Assembly (NCBI RefSeq): GCF_009760905.1
Contig: NZ_VIRW01000004.1
Coordinates: 39,665 to 103,664 of the forward strand
Length of the DNA: 64,000 bases
Direction: 5' to 3'
Origin: Chitinibacter sp. GC72
GTDB lineage: Bacteria > Pseudomonadota > Gammaproteobacteria > Burkholderiales > Chitinibacteraceae
The position numbers were made by a program, and so were the translations under genes. Positions 5,208 to 32,995 of the stretch are shown here, piece after piece (position 1 is the first letter of the stretch; every line of letters begins with the position of its first letter). The notes below the pieces were generated by a model. That model had not been told where the DNA came from and made no database searches. It was given only the letters and a program-made list of their open reading frames with translations.

Positions 5208-5262
5208 GGCGGGTTAGCCGAAGGCGCGCCCCAAACGAAGTCCCCTTGGGGGATAACCCGCC
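5208..5262. repeat. 55-bp GC-rich self-complementary element (left copy), ends GGCGGGTTA...TAACCCGCC
   Basis: Sequence ggcgggttagccgaaggcgcgccccaaacgaagtccccttgggggataacccgcc. Its inner part is the reverse complement of the copy at 8302-8357 (~93% identity). Confidence 0.8.
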
Positions 5263-5361
5263 AATGAGCATGCGATTCAATAGCACCGATCAGCGCAGGT
5301 CGCTACTGCCCTATTCGGCTTCTCGGGCATGGCTATCTATACCCAGTTCTCGCATTTGTTC

Positions 5362-5757: not shown

Positions 5758-6105
5758 ATGAGAAAAATCCTATTGCTGATTGCATTACTCGCGATGGCCA
5801 GCGCCCAAGCTGGCGTGGTCGAGCAAACCACCCGCGAAGCTGGGCGCGGTTTTGCCAAGGGCATAAACGAAGGAACAGCGCAAGCATTTGAAAAAATGCT
5901 CGATAACAACGACAAACGAATGAAACAAAACGCAGCGGACGCCAAACGCAAGCAGCGTTTGGCGAATATTAGTGGCTGCGCGACCAATGCGAAGCGTACT
6001 TCATGCAAGTGCTTTGATAAGCAGGGATCGATTGAGACGATTCTGGATGAGAAGCAGTGTATGGAAGTGGTGAATCGCGGGTTGGCGGCAGTGAATGATT
6101 TTTAA
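5758..6105 (+). CDS. Small secreted/periplasmic protein (signal peptide, 4 Cys), first gene of island operon
   Basis: MRKILLLIALLAMASAQA signal peptide, then a Lys/Asn-rich mature region with CATNAKRTSCKCFDKQG...C. AT-rich codon usage. The ORF track starts at 5683. Confidence 0.5.
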   Translation: MRKILLLIALLAMASAQAGVVEQTTREAGRGFAKGINEGTAQAFEKMLDNNDKRMKQNAADAKRKQRLANISGCATNAKRTSCKCFDKQGSIETILDEKQCMEVVNRGLAAVNDF

Positions 6106-6128
6106 AGTGATTCTGGGATAGCGAGTGA

Positions 6129-7223
6129 ATGAAACGACTAAGTAGGTGTAATAAACAAAGATTAATCCGTTTGGCAAAAATTAGAGCTAATCACAAGAGT
6201 TCTAGAATAAAGAAAAAAGTATTAATTGGCTACATACTCAATGGTACTGGTTTTGCTAAAAAGAAAAGAAGCTCTTATGTTACTGTGAAAATTGTGGCTC
6301 CAATATCATTTAACTTGTATCAGGCCGCACGTAGGCAAAATTTAATAGTTTTTATTGATGAGATAAAAAGAGCGATTAAAGCAAATGCTTCAATCAGAAT
6401 AGATTTTAGTCATGTAAAGAGATTGAATCCGTGTGGTACAATTTTATTTATTGCTGAATTAATGAGGATTATTGAGCTGAAAGGCAATAAACAGCGGGTT
6501 ACTTGTACTTTGCCGAAAGATAAGATTGTTGAGCAGCTATTTAAACATGTAGGTATTTTAGACTTACTTGGTTGCAGAAGTAATGTTGTTGTTCAGCATG
6601 AAACAGTAAAACACTGGACTTTATGTAAAGGAGATCTTGTTGATTTGTCTGGGTTAAAAAGCTTAAAAGATAAGTTAGATATTGAATTGGGTGAAGAAAG
6701 AAGTTTTGCATTATTCACAGGCATACAAGAAGCGATTACTAATACGGTTCATCATGCATATATTGAGGAACGTGGAGATGGCTTCGATGCATCAAGTAAA
6801 AAATGGTTCCTTTTTGCAAAGCACATGGAAGGTCAGGTATCATTAGCAATCTGTGACTTAGGCATCGGGATTCGTCGATCATTGCCGAGAAAAATGCCAT
6901 GGCCAAAACAAATTTTTGATGAAACGCTTGAAAAGTTGGGTGCAAATACAGATCTCGATGCTAAGCACATAAAGGCGGCAATTATGTTGGGTGCAACCAG
7001 AACAGGACTTAGTAATCGAGGGAAAGGTTTACATGACATGAAACATGTTGCGAGCTTGTGTGAGAATGGCCGTTTGGATATATTGAGTAATAAGGGTGTT
7101 TACCGCTTTAGCAAGAAAATAAACTCTGAAATTATTCTTGACCATAAAAGTAATATCCAAGGCACTATTGTGCAATGGGGATTTAATACAAGTGATTATT
7201 TAGGATCAGAAAATGCTGATTAA
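6129..7223 (+). CDS. GHKL-superfamily ATPase / RsbW-SpoIIAB-like Ser/Thr kinase domain protein with unknown N-terminal domain
   Basis: C-terminal half carries N-box GIQEAITNTVHHAY (compare RsbW EAVTNAIIHGY), G1-box LAICDLGIGIRRS and G2-box SNRGKGLHDM. The N-terminal ~190 aa have no recognisable motif. Confidence 0.7.
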   Translation: MKRLSRCNKQRLIRLAKIRANHKSSRIKKKVLIGYILNGTGFAKKKRSSYVTVKIVAPISFNLYQAARRQNLIVFIDEIKRAIKANASIRIDFSHVKRLNPCGTILFIAELMRIIELKGNKQRVTCTLPKDKIVEQLFKHVGILDLLGCRSNVVVQHETVKHWTLCKGDLVDLSGLKSLKDKLDIELGEERSFALFTGIQEAITNTVHHAYIEERGDGFDASSKKWFLFAKHMEGQVSLAICDLGIGIRRSLPRKMPWPKQIFDETLEKLGANTDLDAKHIKAAIMLGATRTGLSNRGKGLHDMKHVASLCENGRLDILSNKGVYRFSKKINSEIILDHKSNIQGTIVQWGFNTSDYLGSENAD

Positions 7224-7533
7224 TATAGCTAAGGATTTTTCACCATTTGCTGCTGGTCGTTATCAGACTGATGGGCCCTGCTCTGGTGAAGCTTTTCGAG
7301 ATTTAGTTCTTGTTCCTAAACTTGAGCAACATAAAATGGAATTGGTGACTGTTAATTTAGATGGCACACTAGGTTTAGGTTCATCTTTTTTGGAGGAAGC
7401 ATTTGGTGGCTTGATCAGAAAGGGATTTAAGAAAGATTATTTACACTCCTATTTGATAATTGAGTGTAAACATCAATCTTATGTTGATGCCGCATGGTCA
7501 TATATCGATGGTGCAAATAATGATGGAAAATAG
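7213..7533 (+). CDS. STAS-like (DUF4325-type) small protein, putative antagonist/partner of the GHKL kinase
   Basis: 106 aa, overlaps the upstream gene by 11 nt. Motif LVTVNLDGTLGLGSSFLEEAFGGL resembles STAS-like DUF4325 proteins that occur next to HATPase_c proteins. Confidence 0.6.
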   Translation: MLINIAKDFSPFAAGRYQTDGPCSGEAFRDLVLVPKLEQHKMELVTVNLDGTLGLGSSFLEEAFGGLIRKGFKKDYLHSYLIIECKHQSYVDAAWSYIDGANNDGK

Positions 7534-8035
7534 TTGGTTTGATTTATATCGCTCTGTGATTGCACCTACTATTGCTATTGTCTTGGTTGTTATTGGATGG
7601 TTATTGGTTTCTAGAGACAATAATAGACGTGAGTTGAGAAAAGAGCTTAGAGGTATTTCATCCGAAATAGGTAAATTAGGCGAAGTTCTTTCGGAAAAGT
7701 GTTATCAATATTTCTCATCTGTAGAGGATGAAGATAAAAGATATCAGCTGGCTTTCGAAATTAAGACGGTTTTGGATAAAATTGAAACGAGTTTTTGTGG
7801 TATGTCAAAAATCAATAAAAACTTCAAAAATGAGTTTCTGGTTTTGAATTTGAGGGGTGCGGTTACTAATAACCAGTTTTTTGAGACGGCTAACTTTAAA
7901 CGACTTGATGCTCGTGATCAGATTCATTTGAATATTAAATTGAAAATTAAAGATATTGAAACTCATATTGACGAGGTTATTTTAAGAACGTATGTGATCA
8001 ATGGTGTAAGAGATTTTTTCTCTTTTTCAAACTGA
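7522..8035 (+). CDS. Membrane-anchored hypothetical protein (single N-terminal TM helix, coiled-coil/Lys-rich cytoplasmic part)
   Basis: ATG overlaps the stop of the previous gene (aATGAtggaaaatag). TM helix VIAPTIAIVLVVIGWLLV. The ORF track frame starts at 7460, but MMENSW at 7522 is the coupled start. Confidence 0.55.
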
Positions 8036-8104
8036 TGTTTACCTGCTGGTATTCTGTACAGACGCACAGAATCAATTTGAATCCAACATCCAATGCGATG
8101 TATG

Positions 8105-8128
8105 AACCGCCAGTCATGGCGGTTTTTC
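8105..8128 (+). terminator. Rho-independent terminator closing the island operon
   Basis: aaccgcca-gtca-tggcggtt followed by tttttc, 70 nt after the 8035 stop. Confidence 0.7.
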
Positions 8129-8301
8129 TTTGCTTGTAGTTTGTGATCAGGCAGCCCGAGTTCGACTGTTGGCGACGTAAATCCTTGATTTTATTAAGAG
8201 CTGTTTTAAAACGTGCCACTACATTACCCAGAATTTCGTATCTTTTTGATTCTTATACGGATTTTAAAAAAGATTGTTATTCGTGAGTGCTCGGGCTGAA
8301 T

Positions 8302-8357
8302 GGCGGGTTATCCCCCGAGGGGACTTCCTTTGGGGCGCGCCTTCGGCTAACCACGCC
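8302..8357. repeat. 56-bp GC-rich self-complementary element (right copy, inverted relative to 5208-5262)
   Basis: Sequence ggcgggttatcccccgaggggacttcctttggggcgcgccttcggctaaccacgcc is the reverse complement of the left copy with ~4 mismatches. Confidence 0.8.
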
Positions 8358-8638: not shown

Positions 8639-9511
8639 TTAGGCAAACACCGATAGATTGCCGCTGCTGGCTAGGCTGGCTAGGCTGGCTTCGCCGCTGG
8701 CGCTGTAGATTGCGCCGCCTTGCTGTATCGCAATTTGCGCTTGCTCATCGGCCACGCTGGCTTCGGCTTTTTGTACCGCTTCTGTGATGTCCTGCAGGCT
8801 TTTTTTGGCCGCGCGCAGCTCGCGCTGATCCATTTCGGTTTTGAGCTGGCGGTTTTCCATGGCCAGCAATTGCTTCAGTTTGTTGCTCAGCTTTTTCACT
8901 TCGGCAAAAAATTCCTTATCACCCGCATCACCTGCCCCACCTGGCCGCCGCTCTGCCGGGCTTTGTGTGCCATCGGCGCGCTGGCTGTCGGTTTTCTCGG
9001 TGGATTTTTCGCCGGATGGTTCGCTGTGTGTTGCGCTGGTTTTTTCGTCGCTGCTGGTTTGCTCGCTGGCTGATGTGCTGCTTTCTGCCAACTCGGCGGC
9101 TGCGCTGGCTGGCTCGCTGCCCGCTTGCCCGGCGGTGGCGCTCTGGCTGGTATTGCTTGTGTTGCTGGCGCTGTCACTGGCGGTCATGCTCGCGCCTGCG
9201 CTGCCGCCGTATTGCGCCACCAGCGCTTTGAGCTCTTTGGCCAGCTCGGCCACCAGGCGCGGATTGCCTTTGCCGATGCCAGCAAAGCGCATCATGTTTT
9301 CAATCCGCTGTTTGAGTTCGGCCATGCGGGCTTTGGCGGCGCTTTTGCGGTCTTGCACGGCTTGGGTGTTGATCTCTTTTGCGCGCGAGAAAAAATCGAG
9401 CCCAATTAGCTTGGCCCCACCTTTTTCGCCCTGCTGCCGGGTATCGCGCTGATTGTCGGGCCGGGCAAGCTGGGTGAGCAAGGGCTTGAGCTGGAATTGG
9501 ATCGGGTTCAT
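8639..9511 (-). CDS. Hypothetical protein with Ser/Thr/Ala-rich low-complexity centre and coiled-coil ends
   Basis: 290-aa ORF with N- and C-terminal predicted coiled coils and a central S/T/A/E-rich linker. No catalytic motifs. Confidence 0.5.
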   Translation of the reverse strand: MNPIQFQLKPLLTQLARPDNQRDTRQQGEKGGAKLIGLDFFSRAKEINTQAVQDRKSAAKARMAELKQRIENMMRFAGIGKGNPRLVAELAKELKALVAQYGGSAGASMTASDSASNTSNTSQSATAGQAGSEPASAAAELAESSTSASEQTSSDEKTSATHSEPSGEKSTEKTDSQRADGTQSPAERRPGGAGDAGDKEFFAEVKKLSNKLKQLLAMENRQLKTEMDQRELRAAKKSLQDITEAVQKAEASVADEQAQIAIQQGGAIYSASGEASLASLASSGNLSVFA

Positions 9512-32639: not shown

Positions 32640-32995
32640 AACAAGGGGAGCAGCCCAAGATTGCGGCATTTCCTGTTGTTCCCGCTGATGCGCGGAGAAC
32701 CGGACACCGGCGGCATTGCTGCGGTGGCTCAATGCGCCACACCGGGTACTGCGTGTTTCGTTCGTATGCCCTTGCAGGCGTGGAGCGGGAGTCGAACCCG
32801 CGACAATCGGTTTCATCAACCGAGGCTCTATCCAGTCTGAGCTATCCAGAGGTGGTGAACCGGGAATCGAACCCGGATAACGCAAACCATTGCCATCACC
32901 GTTATGCAGGAGATCATCGGGCGGTATACCCACTGGCAAAACGCCAGCAGTACCGGAGCGGGGTGAGAGCCGCTACCTGTTGCCGGTCAGAGCCG
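32640..32995 (-). ncRNA. Y-RNA-like (YrlA-type) structured leader RNA containing tRNA-mimic modules
   Basis: Minus-strand sequence between the sigma54 start (~33003) and the SPFH gene. It contains ...GGCAATGGTTTGCGTTATCCGGGTTCGATTCCCGGTTCACCACC followed by a near-complete tRNA-like unit with D-arm AGCTCAGACTGGATAGAGC, anticodon-like arm TCGGTTGATGAAACCGA, T-arm GCGGGTTCGACTCCCGC and a shortened acceptor. No ORF. Confidence 0.55.

Follow-up and report, generated by a model that had tools for sequence, protein, structure and literature searches.

The window analysed here, a stretch of 64,000 nucleotides (nt) from Chitinibacter sp. GC72 (assembly GCF_009760905.1, contig NZ_VIRW01000004.1, positions 39,665 to 103,664), carries at 6129-8035 a cassette of three co-directional, overlapping genes on the plus strand, together ~1.9 kb and designated A, B and C, which encode a STAS-GHKL serine kinase, a small DUF4325 STAS protein and a single-pass membrane protein predicted to be the effector. 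The cassette is a widespread, uncharacterised extension of the family of kinase/STAS immune switches that was reported by Chambers et al. (EMBO J 2026, PMC13373217), and the observation is genuine, well outside what chance would produce. With about even odds in our judgement, it would represent a horizontally acquired membrane-effector variant of the VapKSC system, in which the phospho-switch acts on C.

Two experimentally characterised systems frame this interpretation. CapK, an HTH-STAS-GHKL protein activated by single-stranded DNA (ssDNA), phosphorylates Ser54 of CapS, a STAS protein with a winged helix-turn-helix (wHTH), upon which adjacent immune operons are de-repressed; CapKS is located upstream of CBASS, Bub or Thoeris operons (PMC13373217). 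VapKSC, on the other hand, combines a STAS-GHKL kinase with a STAS antitoxin of 116 amino acids (aa) and the PIN toxin VapC; S48 of VapS lies buried where antitoxin and toxin meet, its replacement in the S48E mutant abolishes the neutralisation of VapC, and the operon provides ~2-log protection against phage Bas42 (PMC13373217). An earlier note on this DNA, made from the sequence alone, had described A and B as a standalone partner-switching module of a type predicted, not demonstrated, to act in conflict or abortive infection, a statement which the characterisation of CapKS and VapKSC has made outdated. The membrane variant and the genera that carry it are nowhere mentioned by Chambers et al. 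(PMC13373217), a description of a kinase-STAS-membrane protein system was not found in the literature, and literature on DUF4325 is nearly empty; in one paper, a VapC PIN clade is transcriptionally coupled to DUF4325 genes.

The kinase A

By profile comparison, A, which is 100% identical to a 'hypothetical protein' annotated in Chitinibacter sp. GC72, is a homolog of VapK and CapK, a STAS-GHKL serine kinase whose ATP-binding and catalytic site is intact. The profile of the A family aligned with VapK at an hhalign probability of 96.0% (E 4e-9; 232 columns, with coverage of STAS as well as GHKL parts) and with CapK at 92.9% (E 3.7e-7; 216 columns), at a sequence identity between A and VapK of ~21%; the VapK, VapS and CapK sequences were taken from the source files of Chambers et al. 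(PMC13373217). Motifs of the Bergerat fold, which the earlier note had quoted and which are indeed present, comprise the N-box with E201/N205, the G1 box D243-x-G-x-G and the G2 box R297-G-x-G. Within the 134 distinct sequences of the family, E201, N205, D243, G245 and G300 are 100% conserved, and R297, G298, G345 and T346 are conserved to 96-99%; N205 corresponds to the catalytic Asn N218 of CapK. A alone scored 19.4 bits against Pfam HATPase_c_2, under the threshold of 27.4 bits, but the GHKL assignment is secure because 25 of 45 family members match HATPase_c_2 at E<0.01 and the Bergerat motifs are essentially invariant. Other searches were uninformative: A as a single sequence retrieved only noise from the PDB (G-alpha, de novo TIM barrels), NCBIfam offered no usable match (equivalog scores of 13 versus a cut-off of 135 bits) and the viral folds of BFVD contained no informative relative.

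The N-terminal part of A, considered unrecognisable before, resolves into a highly basic helix followed by a STAS fold, with homology to CapK and VapK, which makes A a STAS-GHKL kinase. A reading as histidine kinase of a two-component system is rejected, as a DHp/HisKA domain had no match in A, in agreement with the earlier note, a response regulator is absent from the flanking genes scanned and the top structural matches are anti-sigma kinases.

This last relationship, which in kinase fold and N-box is closest to SpoIIAB and RsbW, would be compatible with housekeeping partner switching which controls a sigma or transcription factor encoded elsewhere, an explanation that is effectively excluded. 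In contrast to SpoIIAB/SpoIIAA and RsbW/RsbV, A is fused to its own STAS domain, and the cassette is mobile, AT-rich and borne by phages and plasmids, occurring as foreign DNA at varied genomic sites in related taxa. As had been noted before, no sigma factor, phosphatase or two-component gene is present among the ten flanking genes scanned in the window; moreover, neither sigma factors nor PP2C phosphatases are among the recurrent neighbour families in 37 genomes, and B is devoid of a DNA-binding domain by Pfam. The GHKL and STAS assignments are supported by hidden Markov model (HMM) and fold searches, and the homologs reside outside housekeeping sigma-factor operons, the two points on which the earlier proposal was to stand or fall.

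The STAS partner B

B matches Pfam DUF4325 (PF14213) with 37.4 bits at a cut-off of 23, as does VapS with 62.7 bits, so that the proposed pairing of an RsbW-like GHKL serine kinase with a DUF4325-type partner holds. B is accordingly assigned to the Pfam family of VapS, with a candidate phospho-acceptor, S57 or S58 (codons at 7381-7386), retained. Both residues are part of the invariant block G56-S57-S58-F-L-E-E-A-F-G-G-L-x-R69 and are invariant in eight sequences retrieved via A. The two validated phospho-sites of the characterised systems align with this pair of residues, VapS S48 with S57 and CapS S54 with S58, the substrate Ser in the CapS motif 'D-S-S-F' being aligned with 'G-S-S-F' of B; in addition, the conserved Ser is located at the start of the second helix as in the STAS partners of the CapK and VapK modules. 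With its 106 aa, B consists of the STAS domain only; neither a DNA-binding domain nor a wHTH was detected by Pfam.

The domain is also found in other arrangements. At one locus (L062:6882-8306), A and B read as a single 474-aa open reading frame (ORF), a natural kinase-substrate fusion. B matches positions 341-428 of the 441-position phage profile phrog_5816, so some phage proteins carry DUF4325 at the C-terminus of a longer protein. The Pseudomonas sp. PLMAX plasmid pPLMAXa encodes a B-like DUF4325 protein without A or C, followed by a different, non-membrane ORF of 192 aa, which suggests further partner combinations for the STAS subfamily of B.

A conserved third gene encodes a membrane protein

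The feature delineated in the earlier note comprised the ORFs of A and B, exactly as found here, and ended at 7533, which cuts off the translationally coupled gene C at 7520-8035. Seven homologs of A, from Kerstersia, Achromobacter, Pseudomonas, Acinetobacter, Chromobacterium, an uncultured metagenome-assembled genome (MAG) and wastewater plasmid-like contigs, are each followed by a DUF4325 gene of ~105-112 aa and subsequently by an ORF of 150-183 aa. On a broader scale, one genome per species was scanned for 185,579 species with the conserved motif of B alone as seed, which yielded matches in 263 species genomes. Within the best 80 of these 263, A stands beside B at full length in 71, is fragmentary in four, cut by the contig end in two and absent in three, while C, as identified by profile or HMM, directly follows B in 68, with nine further loci carrying an ORF of the same size with an N-terminal hydrophobic segment, so that the pair is succeeded by C in about 77 of 79 species-level loci. 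Similar proportions are seen in viruses, where 182 IMG/VR contigs possess a relative of B: among the 80 best, 70 have a full-length A and 68 have C. The conservation of C alongside the pair of A and B argues against the standalone two-gene module with unknown output suggested before, and makes C the obvious candidate for the output. In a contig of a Binatia MAG, a C-like gene directly after B is located on the opposite strand (L094:1123-1704, minus strand), which may reflect either a local inversion or an error of the assembly.

C possesses an N-terminal transmembrane (TM) helix at approximately residues 12-31 (7553-7612) with the conserved residues G26-W27, a subsequent basic juxtamembrane stretch, SRDNNRRELRKELR, and an all-helical domain. 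The net positive charge after the TM segment probably places the helical domain in the cytoplasm, where B could reach it. C is the predicted effector or toxin. A word-indexed search for homologs of C returned only C itself, a separate profile search six matches, and a profile search run exhaustively against 1.84 billion representatives retrieved 263 cluster representatives. The 150 of these that were listed are all small standalone proteins of 63-245 aa, mostly ~140-200 aa, with no fusions among them. Judged from its alignment, C is a fast-evolving protein.

The resemblance to VapKSC extends from the gene order, a three-gene operon with kinase, small STAS protein and third gene, to the STAS-GHKL fusion of the kinase, the DUF4325 partner of comparable size (116 aa versus 106 aa) with a Ser at the same helix start, and the mobile or defence neighbourhoods of both. 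The cassette differs in that the VapC-like PIN nuclease which strictly defines VapKSC is replaced by a single-pass membrane protein with no PIN match; furthermore, A carries an extra ~45-aa highly basic N-terminal helix which VapK does not possess, and F54 of VapK aligns to a variable column of the A family. With CapK and CapS, the cassette shares the homologous STAS-GHKL core and the conserved catalytic Asn. However, CapS is a transcriptional repressor with a wHTH whereas B comprises nothing but the STAS domain, the N-terminus of CapK is an HTH where A has its basic helix, VapK having neither of the two, and CapKS precedes immune operons while the present cassette ends at a terminator after C; no immune operon was found downstream of it in the window. 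Thus, neither the C-terminal wHTH of the STAS partner nor the adjacent immune operon, the hallmarks of CapKS, belongs to the cassette.

Mobility and the neighbourhood of prophage repressors

The cassette is located on prophages, plasmids and small islets, often straight after a prophage CI-type repressor, so that the recurrence on mobile elements in a conflict-type context anticipated in the earlier note is confirmed on prophages, plasmids and viral contigs. It is more AT-rich than its flanks in all 47 testable loci, with a median of -10 GC points, differs in genomic location between related taxa and has a tRNA gene at a distance of no more than ~500 nt in six of 52 loci. In a Kerstersia prophage, the start of the cassette overlaps the stop codon of the S24 repressor, with BrnTA alongside; in Achromobacter, it adjoins a phage-type integrase, and in a Pseudomonas P2-like prophage, it is found at the end, after gpD and lysis genes. 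Small contigs with Rep3 or with relaxase and type IV coupling protein carry it next to the M and S genes of a type I restriction-modification (RM) system, and five PLSDB plasmids harbour it, one beside MazEF. In the cultured temperate Marinobacter phage AS1, the trio corresponds to AS1_41/40/39 in the immunity region, divergent from the Cro/CI-family gene AS1_43. In the lambdoid immunity region of a Pasteurella phage-like replicon, an XRE/CI-type regulator, A, the DUF4325 gene and a gene for a hypothetical protein follow each other as a block divergent from the HTH-CII-antirepressor-replication P block. For Francisella phage KIRK, 'HP 293 aa, DUF4325 112 aa, TM protein 125 aa' are listed after the CI repressor. 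The 54 distinct immediate upstream genes of viral loci include 14 S24 CI-type repressors, three holins and also HTH_3/HTH_31 proteins. On chromosomes, the two nearest genes per side in 37 genomes are mixed and include some housekeeping genes; the recurrent mobile or defence neighbours are S24 (5), ResIII (4) and integrase (3), besides type I RM subunits, AbiEii-like AAA_21, phage CII, IS200, MADS and TOTE primase.

The position after the repressor is reminiscent of lambda RexA/RexB, a cytoplasmic sensor and an inner-membrane protein from the immunity region right downstream of cI; neither a kinase nor a STAS switch belongs to Rex, and RexB crosses the membrane several times. A comparable position is held by the cassette in phage AS1, the Pasteurella replicon, the Kerstersia prophage and the 14 of 54 distinct viral neighbours, and a cytoplasmic sensor would likewise be combined with an inner-membrane protein. 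This likeness is a functional analogy only, since sequence and fold are unrelated, no Pfam Rex match was obtained and C has one TM helix whereas RexB is polytopic.

Placement in the same orientation right after a CI/S24 repressor implies expression in the lysogen, and raises the question of whether the cassette is a prophage module for superinfection exclusion or control of lysogeny rather than a suicidal system, with the A/B switch tuning C without killing of the host. C at the inner membrane would then block DNA entry in the manner of SieA or Imm, or modulate lysis or induction. The location after holin or lysis genes in some prophages would fit, and so would the character of C as a small, inner-membrane, fast-evolving protein, as expected of a protein that meets diverse phages. 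We nevertheless consider this explanation unlikely, though the first among the alternatives, as the cassette is also present on plasmids and in prophage-free chromosomal islets, that of the Chitinibacter window included, C has no link to known superinfection exclusion families in Pfam or PHROG, and the sole relative with a characterised role functions as a toxin-antitoxin system.

Loss of the kinase at five loci

In five loci of different species (L079:5633-7992, L023:7477-7980, L070, L031 and L086), A has been destroyed by differing lesions, a ~1.15-kb insertion, internal deletion, 5' truncation or complete loss, and B and C are intact in all five. This set is small and the presence of B was the condition of retrieval, but the loss of A with retention of B and C fits an antitoxin/toxin-like pair of B and C with A as a dispensable trigger. 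It is hard to reconcile with the reversed logic, according to which C would be an anchor or sensor and the kinase A the output, which would phosphorylate proteins of the phage or the host upon displacement of B, in this case an inhibitor of the pseudosubstrate type. As the kinase of both characterised relatives acts on its STAS partner only (PMC13373217), we regard such a role of A as improbable.

The same loci, with B and C persisting without A, would agree with a module that serves addiction only, a toxin-antitoxin system by which mobile elements are stabilised, or with a general DNA-damage stress response, in either case with no dedicated anti-phage role. BrnTA and MazEF as neighbours and the carriage on plasmids would be in line with it, the authors of VapKSC themselves consider the border between stress response and immunity as blurred (PMC13373217), and an E. 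coli system possibly related to the cassette was non-defensive in one screen. This system, VPUS, is listed in Table S6 of DefensePredictor (PMC13092281) as 'hypothetical / STAS-like domain / hypothetical' (WP_000060412.1, WP_001244589.1, WP_000154254.1; 1871 bp) and was cloned; it is either VapKSC-like, with a PIN domain, or a relative of the membrane-type cassette. On the other hand, VapKSC protected against a phage, the placement in prophage immunity regions together with RM and Abi neighbours points to phage conflict, and the invariance of the kinase active site in 134 sequences implies a regulated trigger and not simple decay of an antitoxin. A role in addiction or stress alone therefore appears rather unlikely.

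A proposed membrane-effector variant of VapKSC

According to the preferred interpretation, a VapKSC-like switch with a membrane effector, unphosphorylated B would bind the cytoplasmic helical domain of C in the resting cell and keep C inactive, in analogy to VapKSC and CapKS. Phage infection or DNA damage would yield a cue, probably a single-stranded nucleic acid sensed by the STAS-GHKL groove of A and/or by its basic N-terminal helix, which turns on the kinase. Activated A would phosphorylate B at S57 or S58, phospho-B would release C, and free C may perturb the membrane, leading either to growth arrest or death of the infected cell, i.e. abortive infection, or to the exclusion of the superinfecting phage.

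Several observations weigh against this interpretation. The toxicity of C, its binding by B, the phosphorylation of B and the cue that activates A are each inferred from the characterised relatives. C, the proposed effector, is poorly conserved, with only G26, W27 and T116 above 85% in 115 sequences; it matched no family in Pfam, NCBIfam or PHROG, a PIN domain included, and has no recognisable fold, its AlphaFold2 model from five sequences reaching a mean predicted local distance difference test score (pLDDT) of 44.5, which makes it unusable for a fold search. The check with PADLOC recommended in the earlier note lends no support, since no model of PADLOC-DB v2.0 matched A or B, and C gave a chance-level match only, to a generic '1TM effector' model (E 0.029). 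The invariance of S57 and S58 extends to a 151-sequence set, in which, however, that of the GSSFLEE motif is in part circular, as the search had been seeded with it. F54 of VapK, the putative ssDNA-stacking residue that corresponds to the aromatic W68 in the STAS-GHKL groove of CapK, aligns to R98 of A in a variable, mostly K/R column; nearby columns are only partly aromatic, position 100 being H, Y or F in about half of the sequences and F61 being F, L or I. In view of this alignment, the activating trigger may differ from ssDNA. Furthermore, genes of defence or mobile genetic elements are a minority of the immediate neighbours, the cassette in the Chitinibacter window itself is surrounded by housekeeping genes, and the non-defensive score of VPUS would count here if VPUS is a relative of the membrane type.

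More tentatively, and with less confidence than we place in the VapKSC-like switch as such, the cassette could represent the first case in phage defence of a membrane effector gated by phosphorylation, in which a STAS switch directly holds and releases a single-pass protein. It would then be a lysogen-expressed, kinase-based counterpart of RexAB, with a trigger that is possibly not ssDNA and is perceived via the basic helix specific to the A family.

Organisation of the locus in Chitinibacter sp. GC72

The coordinates are compiled in Table 1. A and B overlap by 11 nt, and B and C by 14 nt, with the start codon of C inside the end of B. The three genes coincide with a sharp low-GC islet, a signature of horizontal acquisition. 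A 58-nt inverted repeat, with just two copies within the window, encloses the islet together with a small upstream ORF. The repeat has no Rfam match, folds no better than shuffled controls and was not found at the other homologous loci fetched; it could have been left behind by an insertion or a recombination event, or be a REP-like element without relation to the islet. No integrase is present among the genes flanking the cassette in the window; its neighbours there are Ada, ankyrin and fructosamine kinase genes on one side and photolyase, SDR and amidohydrolase genes on the other.

Table 1. Features of the cassette and its surroundings; positions refer to the 64,000-nt window
Feature	Position	Strand	Description
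Inverted repeat, left arm	5212-5269	.	58 nt, 93% complementary to 8295-8352
Low-GC islet	6100-8150	.	31-42% GC versus ~57% in the flanks, strongly positive GC skew; coincides with the three genes
Gene A	6129-7223	+	ATG start, 364 aa, STAS-GHKL Ser-kinase (VapK/CapK-like)
A, basic helix	6129-6278		residues 1-50
A, STAS fold	6279-6578		residues ~51-150
A, RsbW/SpoIIAB-like Bergerat ATP-binding domain	6684-7196		residues ~186-356
Gene B	7213-7533	+	ATG start, 106 aa, DUF4325 (STAS-like), predicted kinase substrate/switch
Gene C	7520-8035	+	ATG at 7520, 171 aa, single-pass membrane protein, predicted effector/toxin
Intrinsic-terminator-like hairpin	8104-8135	+	9-bp stem, 5 GC pairs, T-rich tail; strong hairpin at 8104-8125; closes the A-B-C operon
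Inverted repeat, right arm	8295-8352	.	58 nt, partner of 5212-5269

The small ORF within the repeat-bracketed segment (5758-6105, plus strand), immediately 5' of A, encodes 115 aa from an in-frame ATG with a clear signal-peptide-like N-terminus (MRKILLLIALLAMASAQA); its GC content of ~50% lies between the values of islet and flanks, and it obtained no significant family match. On the other side, the islet is adjoined by a gene on the minus strand (8639-9511) for a Ser/Ala/Glu-rich, low-complexity acidic protein of 290 aa with no Pfam match, in a region of extreme AT skew, down to -0.78. Distant from the cassette, ARAGORN predicted a tRNA-His at 32777-32851 (minus strand) with the anticodon 'atg' at an unusual position (36); as the anticodon arm CTCGGTTGATGAAACCGAT does not form the standard 5-bp stem with a 7-nt loop, it may be an aberrant or pseudo-tRNA.

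Significance

It was not until 2026 that the kinase-STAS switch became known as a sensor module of immunity. Its two known outputs are a repressor and a PIN toxin, to which the cassette would add a membrane protein as a third output class. As defence systems can be expected to exchange their effectors, the finding falls short of a revolution, but the placement in prophages, similar to that of rexAB, is notable. The cassette is no rarity, being present in at least 263 species-representative genomes, 182 viral contigs, one cultured phage and plasmids, and its proteins are named 'hypothetical' in every source that names them. Its frequent location after prophage repressors makes it, in genera such as Pseudomonas, Acinetobacter, Achromobacter and Pasteurella, a candidate for a lysogen-expressed exclusion or abortive-infection system, and it would offer a simple route to understanding how a soluble phospho-switch controls a membrane effector.

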